Positions 2,991 to 19,121 of a DNA stretch of 64,000 nt are shown in pieces. The DNA comes from Deinococcus sp. (GTDB lineage: Bacteria; Deinococcota; Deinococci; Deinococcales; Deinococcaceae). The DNA lies in contig OZ253375.1 of assembly GCA_965261005.1 (NCBI GenBank), positions 2,880,001 through 2,944,000 on the forward strand. The letters are read 5' to 3'. Below the pieces are notes generated by a model. It was not told where the DNA came from, ran no database searches, and saw nothing but the letters and a program-made list of their open reading frames with translations. A program made the position numbers and the translations under genes. Each line of letters begins with the position of its first letter. The stretch's first letter is position 1.

Positions 2991-3875
2991 TCAGGCCGGC
3001 AGGTCCTGCGCCACCATTCGCTCGCTCAGGCGCCACAACCGGTCGGCGGCGCCGTCGTCGAGCGCCCGCACGTCGGGTTCCACCTCGCGCTCGTCCGCGA
3101 AGTAGCGCCCGCTGACGCCGGCCACCTCGGGGCTGGTCGCCAAGTACAAGCTGGTCCGCGCGCCCTGCTCGGGCGAGCGTGAAAAGGGTCTCAGCAAACC
3201 GAACACGAACTGCATGGGGCCGCCGTCGTTCTTGCCGAAGCCCGTGGCGACGAAGCCGGGATGCAGGGCGTTGGCGCTCACGCCGCCGCCGCGCAACCGG
3301 CGCGCAAGCTCGCGCGTGAACAAGACGTTGGCGAGCTTGCTCTGGCCGTAAGCCTGAAAGGCGCTGTACGACCGCTTGCCCTCCACGTCGTCCCAGTTGA
3401 TGCGCGCGCCGCGGTGCGCGTCCGAGGAGACGTTCACCACCCGCGCCCCCGGCGTTTTCTTCAGCAGGTCCAGCAGCTCGGTCGTCAGCAGGAAGTAGGC
3501 CAAGTGATTGACCGCCCAAGTCGTCTCAATGCCGTCCGGGGTCTCGGTGCGCCGCGTGTGGACGGCCCCGGCGTTGTTGACCAGAATGTCCAGCCGGTCG
3601 TGGTTCTGCCGAAACTGCCGCGCCGCTTCCCGCACCTGGTCCTGTACCCCGAGGTCGGCGATCAGCACCTCCACCCCCGGGTTGCCGGTGTCCCGCTTGA
3701 TGTCCTCCGCGACCGAGCGCGCCTTGTCGGCGTCTCGTGCCAGCAGCACGACCGTGGCCCCCGCACGGGCGAGTTCGCGCGCCGTCACCTCACCGATGCC
3801 CGAGGTCGCCCCGGTGACCAGGGCGACCTTGCCGTGTAAGTCTGCGTGTAAGTCTGTCTGTACCACTTGGGTCAT
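2991..3875 (-). CDS. SDR family oxidoreductase (retinol dehydrogenase-like)
   Basis: TGATSGIG, NNAG, YGQSK catalytic motif, HPGFVAT. Confidence 0.95.
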   Translation of the reverse strand: MTQVVQTDLHADLHGKVALVTGATSGIGEVTARELARAGATVVLLARDADKARSVAEDIKRDTGNPGVEVLIADLGVQDQVREAARQFRQNHDRLDILVNNAGAVHTRRTETPDGIETTWAVNHLAYFLLTTELLDLLKKTPGARVVNVSSDAHRGARINWDDVEGKRSYSAFQAYGQSKLANVLFTRELARRLRGGGVSANALHPGFVATGFGKNDGGPMQFVFGLLRPFSRSPEQGARTSLYLATSPEVAGVSGRYFADEREVEPDVRALDDGAADRLWRLSERMVAQDLPA

Positions 3876-4047
3876 GCGGCCAGTCTAAGAGCATGGGCGC
3901 CAAAAGATAAGGGAGCAGAGCGGCCAGTTCGCCACCTGCTCCCTGCGCGCGGGGCCACTCGCCCGCCGTGTTGTGCGCTTCCCCAAAAGTGTGACAGACC
4001 GATTCTTACAAAAGTGTCACGGCGCGGGGCGCGGCTTGAACGTTCAT

Positions 4048-4063
4048 TGTGAAAAACCTGACA
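4048..4063. promoter_or_regulatory. Possible CRP-family (DdrI-type) binding site
   Basis: TGTGA-AAAACC-TGACA, 9/10 match to TGTGA-N6-TCACA, in a divergent intergenic region. Confidence 0.35.
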
Positions 4064-4115
4064 CGGCTCTGATGAAGGGCGTCGCGGGTTTTAAAATCGG
4101 GTGAGGGGTTTAAAC

Positions 4116-4784
4116 ATGCGGACAAACTCTGAAGGACCCGGCTGCCTGACCGCGCGCCCCGGCCTGCCCACACACGTCTCCGCCGAGCGCGGTTTGCAAT
4201 CCCTGCCCCAGGGCGCCCTGCTCTACCTACCGCCCACGGTCCCACTTGCCCAGCCCCTCCCCCTGATCGTGACGCTGCACGGCGCGGGCGGTGACGCTCG
4301 GGGCGCGCTGGCCCCGCTGCGCGCAGCCGCCGACGTTCACGGCCTGTTGCTGCTGGCGCCCAAGTCGCGCGGCCCGACCTGGGACGTGATCCTGGGCGGC
4401 TACGGCCCCGACGTGGCCCTGCTGGACGGGGCGCTGGCTTGGACCTTTGCCCGCTATCCCGTCAACCCCACCCACGTCGTGCTGGAAGGCTTTTCGGACG
4501 GCGCCTCTTACGCCCTCTCGCTGGGGCTGGGCAACGGCGACCTCTTCACCCACCTGCTGGCCTTTTCGCCGGGCTTTCTGGCCCCCGCCGCGCAGGTGGG
4601 CGCGCCGCGCATCTTCGTCTCGCACGGCGACGCCGACCGGGTGCTGCCCATCGAGCGCTGTAGCCGCGTGATCGTGCCCCAGCTGGAGTGGGCCGGGTAC
4701 GACGTGGAGTACCTGGAGTTTGCGGGGCCGCACACGGTGCCAAGTGAGGTGGTGGAGGCGGCGCTGACGTGGCTGGGGGCGTGA
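4116..4784 (+). CDS. Phospholipase/carboxylesterase (alpha/beta hydrolase)
   Basis: LHGAGG, GFSDG nucleophile elbow, HGDAD, GPH. Confidence 0.9.
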   Translation: MRTNSEGPGCLTARPGLPTHVSAERGLQSLPQGALLYLPPTVPLAQPLPLIVTLHGAGGDARGALAPLRAAADVHGLLLLAPKSRGPTWDVILGGYGPDVALLDGALAWTFARYPVNPTHVVLEGFSDGASYALSLGLGNGDLFTHLLAFSPGFLAPAAQVGAPRIFVSHGDADRVLPIERCSRVIVPQLEWAGYDVEYLEFAGPHTVPSEVVEAALTWLGA

Positions 4785-4794
4785 GAGAAGGCTT

Positions 4795-5187
4795 TCACCG
4801 GATCAGCTGCACCTTGAAGGGCAAATCGGGAATCTTCGCCCACCCCCGCTCGGCCGTCAGCACGTCCACGTCCAGCACCTCTGCCGTCCCCAGACAGGCC
4901 GCGTCTCCTAAGCTGAGGTTGTAGGGGGATTTGCGCGCGTAATAAAACGTCGCCCGCTCACGGCAGGAGGCGCCAAAGGACACTTCATCAAGCGCGCCAA
5001 GAAGTTGCCGGAATATTCCGCCGACTTGCCCGTGGGTCAGCTCCCCATGCCCGACGAGCTTTCCTTCCACTTCGGTCAGGGTAATGCTGCTGACGGCGCA
5101 CCGCCGGGCGGTCAGGGCAGCGTCTACCTCAGCAGCCCCCGGCTCGTCGGTGATCAAGGCCATGAGCGCGCTGGCGTCAAGCAGCAC
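4795..5187 (-). CDS. vapC: PIN-domain VapC toxin (TA module 1)
   Basis: LLDASAL...E...LSLGDAACL...LTAE; GTG start 3 nt after the antitoxin stop. Confidence 0.92.
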   Translation of the reverse strand: MLLDASALMALITDEPGAAEVDAALTARRCAVSSITLTEVEGKLVGHGELTHGQVGGIFRQLLGALDEVSFGASCRERATFYYARKSPYNLSLGDAACLGTAEVLDVDVLTAERGWAKIPDLPFKVQLIR

Positions 5188-5190
5188 TGG

Positions 5191-5457
5191 CTACCAGCCC
5201 TTGCTTTCTGCCTCTGCACGGCGGTCGTCCAGCAGCTCTTGCGTCAGGTCGCGGCCAGCCGCCGCCCCCCGCTTCTTCACGATGCCCCGCAAGGAAGCCA
5301 CCAAAAGCCGCCGACTGGTCAGCCGGTAGCCGCCCTCCTCCTTAAGAAGAATCAGCTCGTCGCCCTCCTGCACACCCAGATCGGCGCGAACATCCGAGGG
5401 AACCACAACGCGGCCTTGGGCTTGCAACTTCAAGTGATAGGCAGGAAGAGAGGTCAT
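5191..5457 (-). CDS. AbrB/MazE/SpoVT-type antitoxin (TA module 1)
   Basis: QGRVVVPSDVRADLGVQEGDEL; TATTCT -10 box 5 nt before ATG. Confidence 0.92.
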   Translation of the reverse strand: MTSLPAYHLKLQAQGRVVVPSDVRADLGVQEGDELILLKEEGGYRLTSRRLLVASLRGIVKKRGAAAGRDLTQELLDDRRAEAESKGW

Positions 5458-5615
5458 GCCTGAGAATAGCAAAGTAGGCATAAAGCGGTTACGCTCCTAC
5501 CGGGGCGACTTGCACAATGGCAAGTTCTCGCTGACGAGCTAACCGCCTAAACGCAACATATGGATCTGTTTTAAGTCGTACTCTCAAAAGCGTTACTATG
5601 CTCTCAGGAGTAATC

Positions 5616-5996
5616 ATGACTGAACAAATGCACATCGGCCTCGCCGAACTGCTACGGCAGCACAACGTCAGCCAGAAACAGCTGGCAGAGGCCGCCAATA
5701 TGCGCCCCGCCACCATCAACGCCATCTTCCACGCCCGTATTGAGCGAATCGAGATGAGCACGCTGGTCGAACTGGTCACGGGGTTGCGGCGCCTCGGCAT
5801 CAAGGCGGACGTGGGCGACGTTCTGCACGTCGTCGAGACGCCCGAGGGGGCCGAGCAGGCCGCGCGTGAACGCGCCCTGCGGCTGCTGGGTGGTGAACCC
5901 TGGGGCTTGAAAGTGCGAGGTTCCGCCGTCCTTGCACTTGTCAGCGGCCCGCCCATCGAAGACCTGTTGCCCGAACACCGGGGACCGGAACGTTGA
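5616..5996 (+). CDS. XRE/Cro-type HTH antitoxin (TA module 2)
   Basis: LAELLRQHNVSQKQLAEAANMRPATIN; AGGAG RBS; stop overlaps the toxin start (TTGA). Confidence 0.88.
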   Translation: MTEQMHIGLAELLRQHNVSQKQLAEAANMRPATINAIFHARIERIEMSTLVELVTGLRRLGIKADVGDVLHVVETPEGAEQAARERALRLLGGEPWGLKVRGSAVLALVSGPPIEDLLPEHRGPER

Positions 5997-6418
5997 CGTT
6001 GCTGTACCTGGATACCTCGGCCCTGGCCCGCCTGTACACCTTGGAACCGGACCACGAGAAGGTCCGCGCCGCACAGGCCGCCGCGAACGGGGATATCACC
6101 CACGTCATCACTTACGTAGAGTTACACTCGGCGCTTGCCGGTCGCAGGCAGCGAAAGGCCATCGGCGAGCGTGCCTATCAGGACGCCTTGCGGGACATAG
6201 AGCGGGATTGGCCGATCTTTCGGCATGTCAGCGTAGACGAGCAGCTTTTGCAAGAAGCCGCCCGGCTCGCTGAGACGCATGTTCTCCGGGCCTACGACGC
6301 CGTTCACTTGGCCGCCGCCCGGGTCGTTTCACCGCTCGGCATACAGTTCATGACCTTCGATTTGAGGTTGCGGACCGTTGCAGAACAGGTGATGCCCGGT
6401 CAGGTGTGGCAGCCGTAG
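5993..6418 (+). CDS. vapC: PIN-domain VapC toxin (TA module 2)
   Basis: YLDTSAL...VE...LRAYDAVHLAAA...TFD. Confidence 0.92.
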   Translation: MTLLYLDTSALARLYTLEPDHEKVRAAQAAANGDITHVITYVELHSALAGRRQRKAIGERAYQDALRDIERDWPIFRHVSVDEQLLQEAARLAETHVLRAYDAVHLAAARVVSPLGIQFMTFDLRLRTVAEQVMPGQVWQP

Positions 6419-6454
6419 CCGCGCCGTCTTCGCCTGGAATGATTCGGGCAGAGA

Positions 6455-6856
6455 CTAAACTCGCACCAGTTTCAGCGATACATGCTCGGCATATCGCTGG
6501 AAGTTCCGATCTTTTGTCAGGATGGGCAAGCCCCAGTTCGCGCCGCAAGCGGCGATCAGGAAGTCTGTGCTGCTGCCCTGAATTCCCTTGCCCCGGCAGG
6601 CATTGAAGAACTCTGCCGCGAGTTCGTATTCGGGAAAGGCCACTTCCCCATCTGGCAGAGACCGCAAGCTCTGGCGGATTCGCTCGAACACGTCCTGCCG
6701 GCGTAAGCCCTGCAAGACCTCCTGGCGGATGCAGCCGAGCATCTGAACCCGGCCCTCGCGCACCAGTTCACCCAGCAAGCGCAGTTGCGGTGAGGGGTCG
6801 CCCGCCCGCTTTCTGAACGCTTCGGACCACACGTCGCTGTCAACGATCACCTTCAA
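6455..6856 (-). CDS. vapC: PIN-domain VapC toxin (TA module 3)
   Basis: IVDSDVW...QEVLQG...DFLIAA...LTKDRNF. Confidence 0.92.
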   Translation of the reverse strand: MKVIVDSDVWSEAFRKRAGDPSPQLRLLGELVREGRVQMLGCIRQEVLQGLRRQDVFERIRQSLRSLPDGEVAFPEYELAAEFFNACRGKGIQGSSTDFLIAACGANWGLPILTKDRNFQRYAEHVSLKLVRV

Positions 6857-7062
6857 GCGCGTTTGCGCTGCGCCCGCAACTCCTCGTCGCTCGCCATATC
6901 CGCCGGGTCCACCGTGCCGAAGAGGTCCAGAATCTTGAGCTGTTCACGACGTTGGATGTATTCCGCCAACGCCTCGTTGACCGTCTCGCGCTTGGTGCGC
7001 CGGCCACCGACCTTCAGCGCTCGCTCCAGCAGGTCCGGGTTGATTTGCAGGTTCGTCGCCAT
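6853..7062 (-). CDS. vapB: VapB antitoxin (DUF2191-like) (TA module 3)
   Basis: MATNLQINPDLL.RAL..G...TKRETVNEAL.EYI. Confidence 0.9.
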   Translation of the reverse strand: MATNLQINPDLLERALKVGGRRTKRETVNEALAEYIQRREQLKILDLFGTVDPADMASDEELRAQRKRA

Positions 7063-7066
7063 GGCT

Positions 7067-7094
7067 GATATTACACAAATATTTGTGTAATATC
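7067..7094. promoter_or_regulatory. Perfect 28-bp palindrome, likely VapBC autoregulatory operator
   Basis: GATATTACACAAATATTTGTGTAATATC immediately upstream of the vapB start. Confidence 0.8.
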
Positions 7095-7118
7095 GTGAAG
7101 GGAAGTGCTGAGAGGAAC

Positions 7119-7580
7119 TTATTCCGTCTTGCCCGGCAAAGCGATCTCAATGGTCTGTCCGCTGGCGCGTGGGGTCAGCACGACGGTTATGTCGTACCCG
7201 AGGGCGTCCGCGTGTTGCGCGAGGGTTCCAACCGTAGGGTTGAGCGACCCATTTTCGAGCTGTGACAGCCGCCCCTTGCTCAGCTCACGCCGCCCGGCCA
7301 CTTCCTTGGCCGTCATGCGGGCCTGCTGCCGCGCCAGCTTCAGCGCCCGAGCGACGGTGTCCACAACCAACGCTTCTTGAACGTTGGCGGCCACGCCGCC
7401 CCGGCCCTCCTCGGTCAGCAGGCCGGCGGGCAATCCTTCGGTGGGCGTCACGGTGCCGTCCGCGTTGAGAAGCGCTGTAGCCCGTTCCAGTTTGGCTTTC
7501 AGACGTTCATTCGTGATTTGAGCCTTCTTTCTGCTCGCGCCGTCCAGCGTCGGACCTGCCAACAGAGCGCGCGACGCCAT
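7119..7580 (-). CDS. XRE-family HTH protein, probable orphan HigA-like antitoxin (start uncertain)
   Basis: C-terminal HTH: LKLARQQARMTAKEVA...LSQLENGSLNPTVGTL; no intact toxin upstream. Confidence 0.7.
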   Translation of the reverse strand: MASRALLAGPTLDGASRKKAQITNERLKAKLERATALLNADGTVTPTEGLPAGLLTEEGRGGVAANVQEALVVDTVARALKLARQQARMTAKEVAGRRELSKGRLSQLENGSLNPTVGTLAQHADALGYDITVVLTPRASGQTIEIALPGKTE

Positions 7581-7620
7581 TCACAATCGCGCCTTCTTTT
7601 ATGCGAAAGAGTATGAAGGC

Positions 7621-7875
7621 ATGGAATACGAAACGACGCAGCGCGTGACGGTCAGCCTCCCACATCGTCTCGCCCGTTACCTCGATGAGTACCAGAAAAC
7701 GCACCAGATTGGCAGCCGGAGCGAGGCCGTGGTTCGGGCGATTCAGGCGCTCCGCGAAAAGCAATTGGCCGAGGAGTATGCCCAGATGGCGCGTGACCAC
7801 GACCCCCTCTATGACGCTGTTTTGGATGATCTCACGGACGGTCTGGAAAAAAGTGACGGCAGTGAGTGGCGGTAG
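7621..7875 (+). CDS. Ribbon-helix-helix (CopG-like) antitoxin (TA module 5)
   Basis: RVTVSLP..LARYLD...SRSEAVVRAI; overlaps the toxin gene. Confidence 0.88.
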   Translation: MEYETTQRVTVSLPHRLARYLDEYQKTHQIGSRSEAVVRAIQALREKQLAEEYAQMARDHDPLYDAVLDDLTDGLEKSDGSEWR

Positions 7876-8213
7876 GACTGATTCGCCGGGGCGACATTCT
7901 GCTGGTGAACTTTGCTCCCGCGCGTGAGGGGGAGGCCAATTACACCTGGCCCGCCGTGGTGGTAACAAACAACGCGGCCAACGCCAACGCGCCCGTGCTG
8001 ATGGTCGTTCCCTTGACGACCAATCTGGAGCGGATGTACTCCATTCACCTGTTGCTGCCATACCAGCGCACCGGACTGAATGAGGACAGCAAAGCCCAAC
8101 CGGAGGCCCTGCGGGCCATCTCGCTGAGCCGCGTTCTCCGCCGCCTGGGGCACGTTCCGGAGGACCTGATGGCACAGCTCGACGATCGAATCCGGCTGCA
8201 CCTCGCGCTGTAG
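7866..8213 (+). CDS. mazF: PemK/MazF-family toxin (TA module 5)
   Basis: IRRGDILLVNFAP..EGEA...PAVVVTN...VVPLTT...DSKA..E..RLHLAL. Confidence 0.9.
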   Translation: MAVGLIRRGDILLVNFAPAREGEANYTWPAVVVTNNAANANAPVLMVVPLTTNLERMYSIHLLLPYQRTGLNEDSKAQPEALRAISLSRVLRRLGHVPEDLMAQLDDRIRLHLAL

Positions 8214-8240
8214 GGCAGAGGGCGTTCCTACAGCTTTCCC
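8201..8240 (+). repeat. 40-bp junction repeat A (mazF 3' end plus downstream), second copy at 9055-9094
   Basis: CCTCGCGCTGTA(G/A)GGCAGAGGGCGTTC(C/G)TACAGCTTTCCC, 38/40 identical. Confidence 0.9.
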
Positions 8241-8341
8241 TTTGTCTGGAGCAGCAGGCGCGCGTGCTGGACTCGCTCAGAGAGCTGAAACCGTTCCAAT
8301 CATGCTAAAAATATAGTCAGTGCTGGTCAGGAGGATGAAGA

Positions 8342-8587
8342 ATGAGAACGCGGTGGCCGCTTCAAGACGCAAAAACTCACTTCAGCGAACTGGTGGACGC
8401 CGCCTTGACCGAAGGTCCGCAGGCGGTGACTCGGCACGGCAAGAACGCCGTCGTCGTGCTTTCGCATGACGATTATGTGCGTCTCAAACAGGCCAGCACA
8501 ACGCTGGCGGACGCGCTGGGCGGCGCCCCCGAAGAGCTGTCCTTTGAGCGTGACCGGACACCTGTACCCATCCTTCAGCTCGATTGA
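8342..8587 (+). CDS. Phd/YefM-family antitoxin (TA module 6)
   Basis: WPLQDAKTHFSELVDAAL.EGPQ.VTRHGK..VVVLS. Confidence 0.93.
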   Translation: MRTRWPLQDAKTHFSELVDAALTEGPQAVTRHGKNAVVVLSHDDYVRLKQASTTLADALGGAPEELSFERDRTPVPILQLD

Positions 8588-9003
8588 TGTACTTGCTCGA
8601 TACCAACGTCGTGAGCGAGCGCACTAAACCGCAGCCCAACAAACGGGTCATGACCTGGCTGAATGGCCATACGGTTGGGCAGACCTACCTGAGCGTCATC
8701 ACGCTGGCCGAACTGGAACAGGGTGCGATGCTCAAGGGCGACACCAAGCGGGCGGGCGAGTTGCGGGCGTTTCTGCGGCGCCTGGAGGAGCAGTTCACGG
8801 GCCGGGTCTTGCCCGTTGACCGGGCGGTGGCGCGAACCTGGGCCAACATGACCGCCGGGGCTATTTCGGCGGGCAAGACGCCAAGCTACGCCGACGCCCT
8901 GATCGCGGCCACGGCGCTGACGCACGGGCTAACGGTCGTCACCCGCAACGTGGCGGACTTTCGAGCCGTGACCACCGACGTGGTGAACCCCTGGGAAGAA
9001 TGA
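8584..9003 (+). CDS. vapC: PIN-domain VapC/FitB toxin (TA module 6)
   Basis: YLLDTNVVSE...SVITLAEL...DALIAATA..HGL.VVTRN..DF...NPW. Confidence 0.95.
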   Translation: MMYLLDTNVVSERTKPQPNKRVMTWLNGHTVGQTYLSVITLAELEQGAMLKGDTKRAGELRAFLRRLEEQFTGRVLPVDRAVARTWANMTAGAISAGKTPSYADALIAATALTHGLTVVTRNVADFRAVTTDVVNPWEE

Positions 9004-9111
9004 GGAGTGGGGCATGCAGCCACCTCGCCGCGCAACCTTCTGCCACCGGCTCCTCCTCGCGCTGTAAGGCAGAGGGCGTTCGTACAGCTTTCCCCGCCGT
9101 TCCTACCCACC

Positions 9112-9144
9112 CCGCCCAACCCCACCGTCTGTAGCTGCGGCCTG
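9112..9144 (+). repeat. ~30-bp junction repeat B, further copies at 10183-10215 and 10997-11025
   Basis: CCGCCCAAC(C)CCACCGTCTGT(A/G)GCTGCGGC-like motif downstream of three TA modules. Confidence 0.85.
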
Positions 9145-9193
9145 TGCTGACGCAGGAGCTTGGGCAAGTTGCCAATGTGGTCTCCTTTTTTTT

Positions 9194-9329
9194 ATACGGA
9201 TTCCGCTTACTTCCTCAACATCGGGAAAAGCGCCCGATGTTGCTCCAGACCGCGAAACCCGTATTTTTTTCGTAGCCGCTCCGCTGGAAACTCAGTCAAC
9301 TTCGTTGACTGAGTTTCCGGAATCCGTAT
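9194..9329. repeat. Deinococcus small non-coding repeat (SNR/MITE-like), copy 1
   Basis: 12-bp terminal inverted repeat ATACGGATTCCG/CGGAATCCGTAT, two internal hairpins; homologue at 27661-29280. Confidence 0.85.
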
Positions 9330-9367
9330 TACTTCTGAAAGTGTTACCCTTTCTCCAGGGGGTAAGC

Positions 9368-9748
9368 ATGACCGCACAGATGCATATCGGTCTCGCTGAG
9401 CTTTTGCGGCGTCACAACATCAGCCAGAAGCGGCTGGCTGATGCCGCTGGAATGCGCTCGGCAACAGTCAACGCCATCTTTCACGGACGCGTGGAACGGG
9501 TGGAAATAGGTACGCTTGTAGACCTCGTAACGGGTCTGCGGCGCCTGGGTGTCGAGGCTGATGTGGGCGACATTTTGCAAGTTGTAGACGAGCCGGACGA
9601 GACCGAACAGGCCGCCCGCGAACGCGCCCTGCGGCTGCTTGGGGGCGAATCCTGGGGACTGAAACCTAGGGGCCTGGCCGAGCCTGTCACGGTGAGCGGC
9701 CCTCCTATTGAAGACCTTCTGCCCGACTTCCTGGGACCGTCGCTCTGA
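9368..9748 (+). CDS. XRE/Cro-type HTH antitoxin (TA module 7, paralogue of 5616-5996)
   Basis: MTAQMHIGLAELLRRHNISQKRLA, closely similar to the module 2 antitoxin. Confidence 0.88.
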   Translation: MTAQMHIGLAELLRRHNISQKRLADAAGMRSATVNAIFHGRVERVEIGTLVDLVTGLRRLGVEADVGDILQVVDEPDETEQAARERALRLLGGESWGLKPRGLAEPVTVSGPPIEDLLPDFLGPSL

Positions 9749-10170
9749 GCCTGCTCTACCTGGATACCTCCGCGCTGCTTCGCCTCTACACCCGCGAACC
9801 GGACTATGGGCAGGTTGCCGCCCGCAAGGAACAGGCAGACGGCGTGATCTGCCATGTCATCACCTCCGTGGAGATGGTTTCTGCCTTCACCGGTCGGCAG
9901 GCTCGAAAGTTGCTGAGTGGGCGGGCGTATGAGACAGCCCTGGAGGCGTTTAGGAGCGATTGGCCGACCTTTCGGCACGTTGCTGTGGACGAAGAAGTGT
10001 TACAGGACGCCGCCGACCTCGCTCAAGCTCACGGTCTGCGGGCCTACGACGCCGTTCACCTCGCCGCTGCCCAGGCCATCTCCCCGCTCGGCGTGCAGTT
10101 CATGACCTTCGACCTGCGGCTGCGGGCCGTGGCTGAACAGGTCATGCCCGGCCAGGTGTGGCGGCCGTAG
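9745..10170 (+). CDS. vapC: PIN-domain VapC toxin (TA module 7), apparent CTG start
   Basis: Frame extends upstream of the called ORF: (M)SLLYLDTSALLRLY, colinear with the module 2 toxin; CTG overlaps the antitoxin TGA. Confidence 0.85.
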   Translation: MSLLYLDTSALLRLYTREPDYGQVAARKEQADGVICHVITSVEMVSAFTGRQARKLLSGRAYETALEAFRSDWPTFRHVAVDEEVLQDAADLAQAHGLRAYDAVHLAAAQAISPLGVQFMTFDLRLRAVAEQVMPGQVWRP

Positions 10171-10276
10171 CCGTTCCCCATCCCGCCCAACCTCACCGGC
10201 TGGGGCTGCGGCCTGGGTGGGGGCATAACTGTTGCATCTGCTTCGAATACTGCGAATAATAGGGCTGAGGTGAAGT

Positions 10277-10696
10277 ATGACCCTGCACCACACACCCGAC
10301 CTGAAGGAACAGACCCTTGCCAGAGACGCCCAACAGCTCCTGAGTCGCGCCGACGTACAACTGAGTACAGACACGGAGAGCCTCTCCCTGACTCCAGCCC
10401 TCGCCGAATTGCTGCGCGGTCTGCTGGAGCGTCTGGGCAAAGGCGAGAGCGTCACTGTGCTGAGCCGCGACGAGGAACTCAGCACCCAGCAGGCCGCCGA
10501 ATTGCTGGGGGTCAGCCGTCCTTACTTGATTGAGCAGCTTCTAGAGGAGCGCAAGATCCCGTACCGCAAAGTCGGTAAGCACCGCCGCATTCGTGTCCGT
10601 GACTTGCTGGCTCATCAGGAGCGGGAGCAAGCCGAGAAGCGAGCCTTGGTTCGTGAGATCACCGAACTGGCCCAGGAGATGGGGCTGGAGTATTGA
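10277..10696 (+). CDS. Excisionase-family (HTH_17) DNA-binding antitoxin (TA module 8)
   Basis: ELSTQQAAELLGVSRPYLI..LLEE.KIPYRKVGKHRRI...L...AQEMGL. Confidence 0.9.
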   Translation: MTLHHTPDLKEQTLARDAQQLLSRADVQLSTDTESLSLTPALAELLRGLLERLGKGESVTVLSRDEELSTQQAAELLGVSRPYLIEQLLEERKIPYRKVGKHRRIRVRDLLAHQEREQAEKRALVREITELAQEMGLEY

Positions 10697-10985
10697 TCTC
10701 CGTATGGACGCTGCCCTGAGTGCGGGCGCAGGCGTCGTGCTGACCTTCAACCTGGCCGACTTTCCTGCTTCGGCCCTGCCGCCGTCCTTGCAGGCCATTC
10801 ACCCCGACGTGTTTCTGGCCGCCTGTCTGGAGCAGCAGCAGGCGCGCGTGCTGGACGCGCTCGGAGAATTGCGGGCCGACCTGAAAAAGCCGCCGTTAAA
10901 CCCGGACGATCTGCTGGCGGCCATGCCGCGCGCTGAACTTCCGGGGTTTGCCGAGCGGCTGCGGCCGTTCAGGAAGAGAATTTAG
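10693..10985 (+). pseudogene. Internally deleted PIN toxin gene (TA module 8)
   Basis: TTG-ATC-TCC-GTA start coupled to the antitoxin stop, then out of frame only the C-terminal AALSAGAGVVLTFNLADFP...HPDVFL...LKKPP part. Confidence 0.75.
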
Positions 10986-11098
10986 CCTGCTCCGCTCCGC
11001 CCAACCCACCGTCTGTGGCTGCGGCGGGGGCGGAAGGAGAGAGCAATCTAGACTCACCCTATTAATTTTTGCGGCGGCCGAACCAAAGATTATAAGCT

Positions 11099-11929
11099 AT
11101 GCTGCCTCTACTCGATAGGGGAAGGGGGGCAGCAGTGGAGATTGTGGCAAAAAACACATTCAATGTGAAGATGACAGGGCAGGTGCTGCCTCAAACTGTA
11201 GCTGCATCTGTTCTGGGAGACTTTATTACCCAAATCGAAAAGGCTATTCTCGCTGTAATTGGGGAAAGCCAAGAGAGCAATCCTGACTTTGCTTTAGTAA
11301 GCTTGATTGACGTGAGCGAGGGAAGTAATAGACTACATTTTGCTGCGCCACCGACTGTAATACCAGCGGTTGGAGCTATAACTAATGCCGTATTTACGGG
11401 AAACTTTAGCAGTATACCTAGAAAAGCACACGAATATTTATATGCAGCTAATAGAATATGCCACAGGCACTCATGGGGAATTGAATTCGAGGCCAACGAA
11501 TATTATGACATAAGGGGTGTAACCATTCCTCCCGGTTATTTAATACCAGAACCAAGCAAAAGTTTAATGCGCGGCACCCAATCTGTAATAGGTAGAGTCA
11601 TAAGGGCTGGAGGTGTCGAGCCTAAAGTGCATCTAAAGCAATTAGAGACAGACAAATCGTTTCACATCTCTGTTTCGGAAAGCATTGCTCGTGAATTAGC
11701 TGGGAAGCTGTACGATATTGTCGTTTTAGAATGCGAAACTTTTTGGGATACTGACACTTGGGAGATAGATGTATCCCGCATGAATGTTATTAGCGTCGCT
11801 CCTTATTATAAACCCTTGAGTCCAAGTAGAGCTTTTGAAAACTTACGTATAGCCGCTAACGGCTTTTGGGAAGGCGAAAACCCCCTAGCATATGAACACG
11901 CTACAAGAGTGGATGATGAGGACGAATGA
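11099..11929 (+). CDS. AT-rich hypothetical protein, upstream partner of PIN gene (module 9)
   Basis: Clean 276-codon ORF in AT-rich DNA; ATGA overlap with the next gene; no family recognised. Confidence 0.8.
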   Translation: MLPLLDRGRGAAVEIVAKNTFNVKMTGQVLPQTVAASVLGDFITQIEKAILAVIGESQESNPDFALVSLIDVSEGSNRLHFAAPPTVIPAVGAITNAVFTGNFSSIPRKAHEYLYAANRICHRHSWGIEFEANEYYDIRGVTIPPGYLIPEPSKSLMRGTQSVIGRVIRAGGVEPKVHLKQLETDKSFHISVSESIARELAGKLYDIVVLECETFWDTDTWEIDVSRMNVISVAPYYKPLSPSRAFENLRIAANGFWEGENPLAYEHATRVDDEDE

Positions 11930-12444
11930 TCTGCATCGATACAAACACACTGATTTTTGGAGTGCAGAGGAGATCATCACCCGAACATCAAACTCAGATA
12001 GAAGCCGCATCATATTATCTAAGAACACTCAAAAGCTCTGAGATTATACTTGTTCCCTCTCCCGTTGCCTTTGAATATGTTCAGGGCTTTCCTACAAAAT
12101 TTGAACGAGACGAAAATTTTAAAGCTCTCAGCGAAAATTTCTTTATTCCGGGTTTTGATGCTCTAACGGCACGTCTAGCTGCCGAGATATCGGCTACCTG
12201 TGGAGGACCAAAAGGGGTAAGCAAACTAACCGGTTTGCCTAAGCCAGACATTAGACTAGACATACAAATTATTGCTACTGCAATTATACACCAAGCAAGC
12301 ACTATTATTACGTTCAACGAATCCGAGTTTAACAAAATAATCAGTGCATCTGGAATGCAATCAAGGGTAAGGGCTAGATGGGTAACTTCACTCACACAAC
12401 CCTCTTTGTTTGGGCCATCCGACTCGACGGGATTGTCTAACTGA
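11926..12444 (+). CDS. AT-rich PIN-domain nuclease (module 9)
   Basis: ICIDTNTLI...VAFEY...DIQIIATAI...IITFN PIN acidic motifs. Confidence 0.88.
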   Translation: MICIDTNTLIFGVQRRSSPEHQTQIEAASYYLRTLKSSEIILVPSPVAFEYVQGFPTKFERDENFKALSENFFIPGFDALTARLAAEISATCGGPKGVSKLTGLPKPDIRLDIQIIATAIIHQASTIITFNESEFNKIISASGMQSRVRARWVTSLTQPSLFGPSDSTGLSN

Positions 12445-12446
12445 GT

Positions 12447-13333
12447 AGACCTCCTGCGAAAGTGGTGAGCTAGGGTGGGGAATGGCGCACGAACGGTACG
12501 AGCGGACGATGAAGATGAATCGCGTGCGGTTCAAACGGCGCACTGGGGTGTACCCGGAAACGTTCGAGGCCATGCGCATCGTTGTGGAGCAACGCGAGCA
12601 GACGAAGAAAAAGTCAGGCCGTCCCGCCGCCCTGAGTCCAGCCAAGCAGTTGCTGTTGACGCTGGAATTTTGGCGTGAGTACCGCAGCCAAGCCCACCTC
12701 GGCGACGATTGGGGCGTGCACGAAACCACCGTGCTGCGAACCATCGAACGGGTTGAAGCCGCCTTGCTGGCGAGCAGTCAGTTCACCTTGCCCAGTCGCC
12801 GGGCGCTGACCAGCGAAACGGTGTATAGCGCCGTGTTGGTCGATGTGTCCGAAGTGCCGTGCGAGCGACCCCAAAAAAACAGCGAGCGTGGTACAGCGGT
12901 AAGAAAAAGCGCCACACCCAGAAAATCCAGCTGATGATTGAGGCCGTTACAGGCCGCATCATGTGCGTGACAGCAGGCCAGGGCTCGACACACGACCTCA
13001 CGCTGCTGCGCGACTCGGGTGCCCGACTGCACCCGGAAACCGCGCTGATCGCCGACGCCGGGTATCAGGGCGTGAAGCGTGATCATGCTCACTCGCTGAC
13101 ACCGCACAAAGCCACCAAGCGCGCCCCGCTCACTTCTGAGCAACGGTACGAGAACCGCGTGCTGGCGCACTTCCGTCAAAAAATCGAACATGTCATCCGA
13201 CGGCTCAAGATCTTCCGGGTGCTCAAGGAGACGTACCGCCACCGAAGAAGGCGCTTTGGGCTGCGCCTGCATCTCCTCGCCGCACTCGTCAACCTGACCC
13301 TGGACGTCAAATCATGACTTTCGCAGGAGGTCT
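12447..13333 (+). mobile_element. IS5-family element, copy 1
   Basis: 17-bp TIR AGACCTCCTGCGAAAGT/ACTTTCGCAGGAGGTCT; AGT target duplication; two-ORF transposase. Confidence 0.92.
12482..13317 (+). CDS. IS5-family transposase, -1 frameshift at A7 (12873-12879)
   Basis: HTH ORF A plus DDE ORF B (YSGKKKRHT, HDL, ADAGYQG, IEHVIRRLK.F). Confidence 0.9.
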
Positions 13334-13745
13334 AGTGGTATCTGATTAGCGCCTGAGGTTCATCAAAACGGCTACGGGATCCTGCCCACGCAGGCGAGCG
13401 GTTTCAATGACGCTCTTGATGCGGGTGTAGCTGGTGGCGCCCACAGCGTTCTTGCTGCACTGCGACACCTTTCTCGCCATGACGACGCTACGCAACGCTC
13501 GTTCTGCGGCGTTGTTGGTGGGTGGAAGGTCCGGATCACTCAGGAACAGCAACAGGCGGCCTCGCCCATGCTGTTCGAGCAGTCCCCGTCGCAAGCGTTC
13601 GTTGTCCCTCGACTTCAGCGGCCTGCGGTTCAGCAAGTGCCCTAGTCGCTCCGTCAGTGGCTCACCTTGCCGTGCGTATTCCTGCCGAGTCACCAGCCCC
13701 TGGTGATAGGCAGCGTGCAGCCGAATCCCGTCCCTGAACAGTTGA

Positions 13746-14934
13746 CTGACATATTGCAGTTTAAGGAGCGTGGGTAGGGATGGCGTCTTGAGCGGCGTCG
13801 AGGTCAGCGAGTTCGAGGAGCAGGGCGGCACGGCGCACGTCGGCGAGCAGGGTGAGCCGCAGGGCTTTGGCCAGTTCACCCCAATCCGGCCACTCGCCAG
13901 GTGGCCGTGGTGGCAAGTCGAGATCGGCCAAGTGACACAGCAGGAAGGCCAAGGTCGAGAGGCACCAAAAGCGGAAGGCGCCCTGTTTGCTGTGCTGGGC
14001 AAAGCGTTCCAAACCGAAACGGCCTTTGATGGTTTTGAAGAACGCCTCGATCTTCCAGCGACGTTTGCCTACACGGGCCAGGTAGACACCGCCCAGTTTG
14101 CAGCTGGACATCACGAAACGCTGTTCGGGCTGCGTGTTGCGGTACAGCCAAACCCAAGAGACGGTCATGTGCTGACGCAGTCCTTGAGGGGTGACGGTCG
14201 AGCCACGCACGGTGAGGTCGGCGACGGTGCGGCCATCTGCGAGCTTGCGGTTTTTGCGCACGCCCACGATCAGATCGAACCCAACGTCGAGGACACCGTG
14301 GATGAAGGTGGCACACTCGAAGCCGCCGTCGGCATGCACGCGCGCCTTTCGACCGCTGCTGAGCAACCCCTTGGGAACGCTGCGGAGCAGTTTAAGGGCC
14401 AGCACGGCGGGTGAGGGGGTGCCTTTACCGCGCCAGACCTGGACGGCCCAGGGCAAGCGGAGCGGACCACAGCAGAGGTAGAGGACGACCAGATGAACGC
14501 CGTGGACGCCGTTGTAGACGTGCATCCAGTCATCCAACTGCTCAAAGTGGCCGGTCTTTTCCAAGCTGGTGAGGTCGATCAAGAGTTCGAGGCGGGGACG
14601 CTGGTGGGGAGCTGAGCGCCAGAAGTCGAGGAGCGTTTGCTGAGCGTGGTGACGCAGGGCGCGAACGAGGGAGCGGGTGGACCAGCCGTAGTGGTTGAGA
14701 AACCGGCTGATGGCAGCGGGAGACTTGACGGTGGCTTGACTGGGGAATGGTCGGCCCTTGGCTTCGAGGAGCAAGTCGAGGAAGACGCGCAACGAGTCGC
14801 GGTGCTGCTTACGAGCGAAGCTCTTGAGGATGTCAGAATAGAGTTGTCTGGAACGTGCTTCTTTTGGATTCACACCCCAGCTTGGGGCCAAAACCGCGTT
14901 CCAGACAACCCCTATGAAATCTGCAACATGTCAG
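13746..14934 (-). mobile_element. IS701/IS4-like element nested in IS66
   Basis: TIR CTGACATATTGCAG/CTGCAACATGTCAG; TTGA target duplication (13742-13745, 14935-14938). Confidence 0.88.
13761..14891 (-). CDS. IS701-like DDE transposase
   Basis: IDLTSLEKTG, ADGGF, RRWKIEAFFKTIKGRFGL; true start may be GTG at 14873. Confidence 0.85.
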   Translation of the reverse strand: MAPSWGVNPKEARSRQLYSDILKSFARKQHRDSLRVFLDLLLEAKGRPFPSQATVKSPAAISRFLNHYGWSTRSLVRALRHHAQQTLLDFWRSAPHQRPRLELLIDLTSLEKTGHFEQLDDWMHVYNGVHGVHLVVLYLCCGPLRLPWAVQVWRGKGTPSPAVLALKLLRSVPKGLLSSGRKARVHADGGFECATFIHGVLDVGFDLIVGVRKNRKLADGRTVADLTVRGSTVTPQGLRQHMTVSWVWLYRNTQPEQRFVMSSCKLGGVYLARVGKRRWKIEAFFKTIKGRFGLERFAQHSKQGAFRFWCLSTLAFLLCHLADLDLPPRPPGEWPDWGELAKALRLTLLADVRRAALLLELADLDAAQDAIPTHAP

Positions 14935-15990
14935 TTGAGCGAGCCGCTGTCCATACAGCTCTCCTCGACCTGGCCGTTGTTTGGCTTGCTCAGCAGTCTG
15001 GTCAGCATTGCGGATCAGGTGCGCCAGACACTTCTGCTGCTGCACCCCGTCCAAGAGGCGGCTGTCATACACCTTGAAACGGTCCGTCACCAGCGTTCCC
15101 GCAAACGCATTCCCCAACACAGCCCGCAGTTCTGCGTTCCCGTGCTTGCGGTTGACCCGGAACAGCACGCTGTCTTCTGAGCGGAAGGTGCTGATCCACG
15201 CCGGGCTGGCGTTCATCCGCCAGCCCGTGTCGTCATGGTGGACATACGCGGCAGCTCGCAGTTCTGCTGCAAGCGCTTCGACCTGCACAGCCAAAGGACC
15301 ACCATCTTCTGCCAGTCGCATAGCGGCCTGGTTGATGGCCCCTTGCGTCACACGGATGCCCGTGGTCAGGTGCAGCACGCGGGGCAAACGGCGTTCCGGG
15401 ATGCCCTGCTCATGGCGCAAGGTCTGGATCACCGCCTCAAGGCGTGCCCCGTAACGATGGGCGGTGGCCCCACACTGATCTGAAGCGAGGTCAGCGTGTT
15501 GACCACGCACCGACTGTCCGCAGACCGGGCAGACCATCACCGGCACGTGGTACGCCGTCACCTGCATGGCCTGCTCGGGCGCCAAGTCGGTGATCCAGGC
15601 TTTGTCCATCCGCTTGAACAGCAACTCGCCCGTGTACCCGCACTTGGCACAACTGTTGGGGGGAGCAACCTGGATCACCGCCTGCACCGACTCAGGTTCG
15701 GGCGGGACTTTGTATGTGAACGTCCCGACGCCAGCTCGGCGCCCGGACGGCTGAGCATCCGCTTTGCGCACCTCGCGGCTGTGTGGCGCGACGTACTTCT
15801 TTCCCTTGCGCTCCAACGCTTCGATACGCTTCCTGAGTCGGGTGTTCTCGACCTGAAGCTGCTCGATCTGCTCGCTTTGCCGACGGAGCACCTCAAGCAC
15901 GTCTCGCTCCGTCAGTTCCCCAGCCATGCCCTGACTCTAGCCCATCTGACCCTTCTCGCGTCATTGCCGGCTCAGCCGACGGATACACCG

Positions 15991-19089
<3,099 letters not shown>

Positions 19090-19121
19090 TCCGAGGGAGG
19101 AGCATAACACGAGGGGGAGAT

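Follow-up and report, generated by a model that had tools for sequence, protein, structure and literature searches.

Toxin–antitoxin modules and lineage-specific direct repeats at a carB-anchored hotspot in Deinococcus

Introduction

Small gene modules are assembled at particular genomic sites by several described systems, which offer the closest comparison for the locus considered here, an array of toxin–antitoxin (TA) modules next to carB in a 64,000-nucleotide (nt) stretch of a Deinococcus sp. genome (contig OZ253375.1, positions 2,880,001 to 2,944,000; hereafter the window). Sedentary chromosomal integrons, such as the Vibrio superintegron, and clusters of attC sites lacking integron-integrases (CALINs) consist of repeat-bounded cassettes in variable order, and the attC sites of integrons are species-specific. 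At carB, directly repeated sites likewise bound cassettes of variable order, and they are lineage-specific in a similar way. In contrast to integrons and CALINs, the locus has no IntI match, attC core or hairpin excess, its cassettes are of the TA type only and number at most about nine, and its defence genes occupy one replaceable slot rather than repeat-bounded cassettes. XerC/D pdif modules on Acinetobacter plasmids, which often carry TAs, are small modules shuffled by host enzymes; their sites are AT-rich, alternating and dif-like over 28 bp, whereas those at carB are C-rich and without exception in direct orientation. At Neisseria pilE, gene conversion is initiated by a G-quadruplex (G4), with a one-strand G-tract motif next to the recombining locus; such a motif is also found at carB, where the G4 is a predicted motif and, unlike at pilE, there is no silent-copy donor system. 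Minimal mobile elements are comparable in that they too are anchored in core genes.

Integron TA cassettes are described in PMC13108822 as having their own promoters and a link to defence genes. Hotspots free of mobile genetic elements (MGEs), which recombine at flanking core genes according to passages of PMC5635113, and the core defence hotspots of PMC10250203 resemble the carB locus in their core anchor, the high turnover of defence genes, the lack of an integrase and, for the MGE-free hotspots, recombination in the anchor itself, of which carB shows tentative signs. An internal, repeat-bounded TA array with host-tracking repeats is found here and is absent from those passages of PMC5635113. 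In Photorhabdus, PMC13617665 reports small co-located TA spots, toxin decay before antitoxin loss and a duplicated 24-bp site on either side of one TA. Such sites there are palindromes of the Tn3 res kind, each at an individual TA, and the TAs are rarely associated with defence systems, whereas the repeats at carB are non-palindromic and enclose entire arrays next to a defence slot. A literature search of titles and abstract openings, outside subscription papers and supplements, returned nothing on this locus.

The window block is one copy of a hotspot common to many Deinococcus genomes, with the layout flank – (TA module + repeat)n – AT-rich slot – carB. It behaves much as a small array of a sedentary integron would, yet falls outside the integrons, and is a variant of the MGE-free defence hotspot. 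Directly established are a common module pool, fixed orientation, permuted order, repeats that track the host and are confined to the hotspot, and a variable, defence-like slot. The mechanism we infer, with a probability of roughly 0.6, is that the host's recombination machinery, acting on the short direct repeats typical of each lineage, adds, removes and reorders modules without the help of a dedicated integrase. With its defined 40–55-nt sites, fixed anchor gene and dozens of natural alleles, in a genus that has a genetically tractable model, the locus allows a direct test of how chromosomal TA modules come to be acquired, clustered and rearranged where no integrase is present. The first-pass annotation of the window lacked the repeat-bounded cassettes, the defence slot, the probable import from another genus and the genome-wide TA richness.

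A module pool shared downstream of carB

The carB 3' end was located in 119 of 124 family genomes and the downstream DNA was taken for 112, the seven genomes with carB at a contig end being excluded; 98 loci gave at least 6 kb. At least one shared module lies downstream of carB in 39 of the 112 loci, all in one genus (g8), while none of these modules was matched at the carB loci of three genomes from the window's own genus or of 20 representing four other families. Relative to carB, the modules keep one orientation in 73 of 74 calls; the single exception is a mazF that points the other way next to a duplicate of the carB end (L101; loci are denoted by L numbers). The 19 multi-module loci show 17 arrangements, including conflicting orders of the VapB-VapC (V) and AbrB-PIN (A) modules (V before A in three, A before V in three) and of XRE-PIN (X) and V (two against two). 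Close V and A alleles (82-89% nt identity) stand in opposite order in L058 and L064. Furthermore, L055 and L064 agree in repeat type and are 97% identical over a 141-nt carB end, but similarity between their toxin genes of modules A and V reaches only 67-71%. The same pool includes a predicted nucleotidyltransferase-like pair (N), labelled from a motif and lacking a Pfam match. It comprises a 145-aa open reading frame (ORF) with a partner of about 70 aa, and occurs at L016:3136-3570 and eight other loci.

Comparison of the esterase–carB interval across relatives shows one pool of modules in different content and order, and the initial view of an accretion hotspot rather than a single acquired island holds. 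Arrival of the whole block as cargo of one mobile element, already largely refuted, is highly improbable. Insertion sequence (IS) elements do adjoin the block, and the pair in its slot lies beside an integrase-like ORF in one metagenome contig (L140); however, none of 72,556 plasmids covers 80% of the block, the nearest relatives of its modules belong to different repeat lineages, and no relative's locus matches the window in content or order, so that neither an identical block on one mobile element nor its fixation among relatives was found.

Junction repeats

Most modules end, on their carB-proximal side, in a C-rich direct repeat of 40–55 nt. Five types were distinguished, all with a C-rich run followed by an AGC-n-G-n-R-GC core, and a typed repeat is present at 66 of 85 junctions. 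In the window, three copies of about 50 nt follow the last three GC-rich modules and are the only three matches in the genome (G000). A scan of 1.66 Mb of carB loci gave 82 matches, all on one strand and at most 7.6 kb from carB. Searches of whole genomes by pattern, in 20 pairings of genome and pattern drawn mainly from array-bearing genomes, placed 34 of 34 matches at the hotspot; loci in which the flank gene abuts carB have no repeat. In L019, L028, L039, L083 and L087, n modules are flanked by n+1 repeats, most clearly in L087 with its six repeats and five modules.

Repeat type follows the host lineage, not the module. Loci with at least two repeats are of a single type in 13 of 14 cases, the exception (L011) being a mosaic of types A and B, and 30 of 32 repeats are closer to the repeats of other modules in their own locus than to that of the same module elsewhere. 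In addition, the type tracks the nearest neighbour by carB (37/39) and by dsbA (14/17).

One alternative is a neutral sink between convergent genes, in which the repeats are passive remnants carried along by insertions and order arises from tandem duplication and random loss or from independent insertions. This is improbable, although the genome is rich in TAs throughout (counts are given below), relics in the window attest to duplication and loss, module trees follow repeat type at shallow depth only, and functionless TA clustering is reported in PMC13617665. Passive copies would not track the host or mark the edge of the slot (39 of 40 loci), and no such repeat is found among the five largest repeat families in each of four other TA-bearing stretches of the genome.

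Alternatively, the repeats might be true recombination sites, served by a host site-specific recombinase in trans or opened by a G4, with modules moving as one-repeat circles. The core shared by all five types, the confinement of the repeats to one strand, the n+1 flanking and the occurrence of the N module with all five repeat types are in keeping with this possibility. So is the distribution of a canonical G4 motif, which the carB-sense strand carries at 39 of 85 junctions and the opposite strand at one of 85, compared with 151/3603 and 43/725 (4-7%) in control post-stop windows. The idea is nevertheless doubtful: no integrase occurs among the hotspot proteins scanned with Pfam (103 of about 174 candidates), the repeats lack the attC core and any hairpin excess, and the types diverge strongly in sequence. 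The G4 counts are non-independent and partly due to C-richness, and the enrichment is a lead only, because repeat copies share descent. The oligoG repeats of D. radiodurans (PMC1978522) may be relevant to this motif. Host recombination at the repeats is favoured over both a dedicated or G4-driven site system and passive accumulation.

Other identities of the repeats were rejected. A hidden Markov model of the carB end misses them, and 18 of 20 gave z<2 against run shuffles, which excludes decayed carB 3' ends or att copies. Dispersed repetitive extragenic palindromic or small non-coding repeats are excluded by the confinement of all genome matches to the array or hotspot. As for attC sites with IntI, the core (RYYYAAC...GTTRRRY) was found in 0 of 82 repeats, the mean folding z ranged from -0.94 to +0.47, and IntI (TIGR02249, E<=1e-40) was matched in 0 of 125 genomes in a search without a positive control. 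Rfam scans of four loci identified only a SAM riboswitch and two tRNAs, all of them away from the repeats.

A small ORF, rich in Arg and bearing a CSCGLC motif but lacking an obvious start, lies 45-330 nt from the carB stop in L026 and at L022:2553-2753 on the minus strand; the right half of the type-A repeat matches the 3' end of this ORF, from which the repeat may have arisen. A separate dispersed non-coding repeat, outside the cassette system, stands directly right of a type-A junction repeat both in the window (9189-9330) and in L021, about 1 kb from carB.

The AT-rich slot

Across the carB-proximal repeat, GC content falls from 0.62 to 0.43, with a drop in 39 of 40 loci (0.64 to 0.44 in the window). 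A PADLOC scan of 100 carB-near proteins from 46 loci, chosen from about 174 cluster representatives, gave a match at E<1e-15 in 23 loci, and the slots of relatives contain type II restriction–modification (RM) genes, cyclic oligonucleotide-based anti-phage signalling (CBASS), HEC-01, Nsn, Ppl and PD-T4-2-like genes. Transposases are present among the hotspot proteins. Variable defence cargo thus lies beside the fixed core gene carB, as in MGE-free defence hotspots. The other 23 of the 46 scanned loci lack a strong PADLOC match, and the slot is a source of candidate defence systems. Genes with neither a Pfam nor a PADLOC match are carB-proximal in L022, L025, L028, L062 and L083 and are candidate new defence genes.

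TA modules might be kept mainly as abortive-infection defences, forming one anti-phage island with the slot. The RM, CBASS, HEC-01, Nsn and Ppl-like genes of relatives agree with such a role, and TA presence tracks slot presence (34 of 48 loci with a slot against 5 of 41 without, kin not being independent). This reading is unlikely, since the 17 proteins of the window gave only generic HTH or weak PADLOC matches and no system, and four antitoxins have outlasted their toxins, which are damaged or lost. The anti-phage role first proposed for the block therefore fits the slot of relatives and not the window's own proteins.

The slot of the window is occupied by Hyp8-PIN8, which has a type II TA layout with a partner of no known family and is a putative pair. 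It is kept in metagenome contigs L140-L142, at 49% and 44% identity and with the PIN directly after the Hyp8 homolog; these near-identical loci amount to one observation. Hyp8 homologs fall in Atlas clusters without names, and a search of genome contigs returned no relative.

Recombination as the favoured mechanism

Deinococcus is naturally competent. In the mechanism that we favour, incoming chromosomal DNA, probably taken up by natural transformation, would cross over in carB on the right and in a repeat or module on the left, so that the slot is swapped and TA modules are added or replaced. Repeat-by-repeat recombination, through RecA or single-strand annealing, would then delete, duplicate and reorder modules, and would also keep repeats alike within a lineage. 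Addiction would favour events that retain resident antitoxins, leading modules to accumulate, and later decay of toxins would leave an antitoxin bank able to blunt plasmid-borne homologs. Precedents are found in the recombination of MGE-free hotspots at flanking core genes (passages of PMC5635113), in repeat deletion by annealing in D. radiodurans (PMC4627823) and in toxins decaying first, before antitoxin loss (PMC13617665).

Several points weigh against host recombination at the repeats. The D. radiodurans repeats tested in PMC4627823 are 438 bp long and mismatches lower the rate, whereas those at carB are 40-55 nt and imperfect. Four of the seven scored window junctions have no repeat, the proximal enrichment of repeats is non-significant (20/23 against 28/42, p 0.087), and the core motif common to all five types could indicate a protein-recognised site. 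Order is non-random, MazF (M) tending to be carB-proximal (V before M 6:1, A before M 5:1), and the window array does not show the age gradient that was predicted along it (rho -0.17, p 0.55). Contigs of runs X1 and X2, which drop rare variants, contain no repeat-to-repeat joint. Finally, the Photorhabdus data describe TAs that lack a conserved neighbourhood and rarely cluster with defence systems (PMC13617665).

A broader proposal, which we advance tentatively as a rather unlikely one, is that of an integrase-free carB cassette system in which G4-forming, host-specific repeats would serve as active recombination sites that capture, duplicate and shuffle TA cassettes; these cassettes would guard a swappable defence slot and could even fuse to give one multi-toxin antitoxin.

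Modules of the window array and their decay

The features of the window array and its flanks, from the esterase to carB, are as follows.

4101-4784, plus strand: esterase, left flank (PF00756)
4795-5187, minus: PIN1 toxin, module A (PF01850, E 2e-10)
5191-5481, minus: AbrB/MazE-like antitoxin, module A (PF04014, TIGR01439)
5598-5996, plus: XRE antitoxin (XRE2), module X, first copy (HTH_26/HTH_3)
5993-6418, plus: PIN2 toxin, module X (nearest relative in a type-D locus, 78% nt)
6455-6856, minus: PIN3/VapC toxin, module V (NF047959 above cut-off; D118N)
6853-7062, minus: VapB antitoxin, module V (PF09957, E 4e-15)
7067-7094: 28-nt perfect palindrome, predicted operator, upstream of vapB
7119-7580, minus: orphan XRE, module O (family scan)
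7621-7875, plus: RHH antitoxin, module M (weak HicB-like and NikR matches; homologs sit before mazF in relatives)
7866-8213, plus: MazF toxin with R29W, module M (PF02452)
8243-8283, plus: remnant of a former PIN7 copy (89% to 10824-10867)
8342-8587, plus: Phd/YefM antitoxin, module P (PF02604)
8584-9003, plus: PIN5 toxin, module P (PF01850, E 9e-14)
9046-9094, plus: remnant of the 3' end of a second mazF, hairpin included (92% to 8192-8240)
9106-9155, plus: junction repeat type A, copy 1, with canonical G4 motif on the carB-sense strand
9189-9330: dispersed non-coding repeat, about 50 copies genome-wide
9368-9748, plus: XRE antitoxin (XRE6), module X, second copy (86% aa to L033)
9745-10170, plus: PIN6 toxin, CTG start
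10177-10225, plus: junction repeat type A, copy 2
10277-10696, plus: Xis/HTH_17 antitoxin, module I (PF12728, TIGR01764)
10693-10985, plus: PIN7 C-terminal remnant (weak match to NF046100 only; full-length relatives are PIN_3)
10990-11030, plus: junction repeat type A, copy 3, bordering the AT-rich slot on its left
11099-11929, plus: Hyp8, hypothetical protein of 276 aa, no family, in the defence slot
11926-12444, plus: PIN8, AT-rich (PF01850, E 2e-4, under cut-off)
12446-13334, plus: IS5-family element with terminal inverted repeats
13346-15927, minus: IS66 remnant, split by a multicopy IS701-like element (13745-14935)
15991-19110, minus: carB, right anchor

The ORF listing and family scans bear out the count originally given, of eight two-gene modules (seven PIN, with six partner types, and one MazF), plus an orphan XRE antitoxin and no integrase, the nearest PF00589 match being about 250 kb away. 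Five PINs pass the Pfam cut-off and PIN8 falls just short (22.5 against 23.6 bits). The antitoxin-first, overlapping type II layout is seen in A, X2, V, M, P and X6. Density is high, with six PIN/MazF matches in 8 kb against a maximum of five in 5000 random placements of the 52 matches on contig C1. The location at the carB 3' end is likewise correct; the claim that there is no other cargo is not, as three direct repeats, two gene relics and one dispersed repeat lie within the block, and 3.5 kb of IS5, IS66 and IS701 sequence separate it from carB. A promoter or operator of its own, attributed to most modules, is suggested by the palindrome before vapB, a predicted operator; a sigma-70 scan found two sites against 2.8 expected, with a terminator scan likewise giving no excess. 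The TAGTAT hexamer that precedes the RHH start by 6 nt in relatives reads GAGTAT in the window (7607-7620), so that the mazEF promoter may be weakened.

Over 3000-9223 and 9289-12475, the window is matched exactly by contigs of run X1, possibly its source sample. A depth step is present at 9289-12475.

The modules AbrB-PIN1, XRE2-PIN2 and Phd-PIN5 look intact, as does VapB-PIN3 apart from its substitution, and alignments of PIN1, PIN2 and PIN5 show seemingly intact active sites and start codons. To judge from the sequence, the array is decaying. MazF has W at position 29, a site occupied in 20 relatives by R (18) or H (two); the R29W toxin is likely to be inactive, this Arg and the other altered toxin residues having, we assume, catalytic roles. 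The D118N change of PIN3 affects a column invariant in 14 relatives, and PIN6 starts with CTG, where the other 11 copies have TTG (ten) or ATG (one). PIN7 has lost its N-terminal ~95 of 190 aa out of frame, the first catalytic Asp included, and the orphan XRE has lost a 128-aa upstream partner present in L015, L087 and L103. The relics of PIN7 and of the mazF end record duplication and deletion within the array. The 128-aa partner (L015:3748-4131, L087:12275-12658, L103:2525-2908) has no Pfam or PADLOC match and is a candidate new toxin.

Import and the carB mosaic

The block was likely imported, esterase included, from type-A Deinococcus, which belongs to another genus, and would now be eroding. 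Codons 1-880 of carB group with an own-genus genome (support 100/98), while the C-terminus falls, with weak support (85/78), among type-A Deinococcus, to whose alleles the last ~150 codons lean. Informative sites favour own genus over type A by 46:8 up to codon 880 and by 3:8 thereafter (p 2.8e-4 with a post hoc breakpoint). The esterase lies downstream of carB in type-A Deinococcus, and a search of three own-genus genomes, run without a positive control, found no match at E<=1e-20. PIN6 is 91% identical (nt) to type-A locus L033, where the carB end is only about 75% identical. Moreover, in L023, L034, L050 and L101 the final 64-148 nt of carB recur as a direct duplicate within 1 kb of the carB stop. 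Together, the mosaic sites, the esterase, PIN6 and the duplicated carB ends make import through recombination anchored in carB likely, though unproven. Two points count against it, as the breakpoint was picked after seeing the data and the approximately unbiased test leaves a non-mosaic placement of the C-terminus unrejected (p 0.50). The carB-end duplicates in L023 and L034 begin at the same position.

A chimeric antitoxin in relatives and a TA-rich genome

The notion that the block serves as an anti-addiction bank receives indirect support from toxin decay, which would leave a bank of antitoxins, from AbrB-PIN homologs on Deinococcus plasmids and from a constrained chimeric antitoxin in relatives. 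The latter is a toxin-less ORF that joins in frame the RHH domain of module M, an XRE C-terminus and a Xis C-terminus, and is found at the following positions, with a broken copy in L022.

L014:6822-7235, minus strand: chimeric antitoxin
L025:13695-14087, plus: chimeric antitoxin
L034:2764-3177, minus: chimeric antitoxin

Its dN/dS is 0.19-0.27 overall and 0.13-0.35 per segment, and its full-length form is represented by four clusters. It is predicted to neutralise two toxins, and it provides a clean test case for the anti-addiction idea; a complex prediction of residues 48-137 with PIN6 scored 0.06 (mark 0.32) and carries no weight either way.

Genome-wide, the window's genome has 43 PIN and 10 MazF matches. 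In one search mode its 33 PIN matches, against at most 21 in 120 kin, place it first of the 121 family genomes. Its TA pairs are interspersed with what look like genes of amino-acid biosynthesis, and AbrB-PIN is duplicated in tandem in L133 (C1:2597000-2617000). Furthermore, L137:5017-15390 is an integrative element of about 10 kb, with a tyrosine integrase and, at its two ends, an 81-nt direct repeat resembling a tRNA 3' end, and MazF-like genes lie both inside and beside it.

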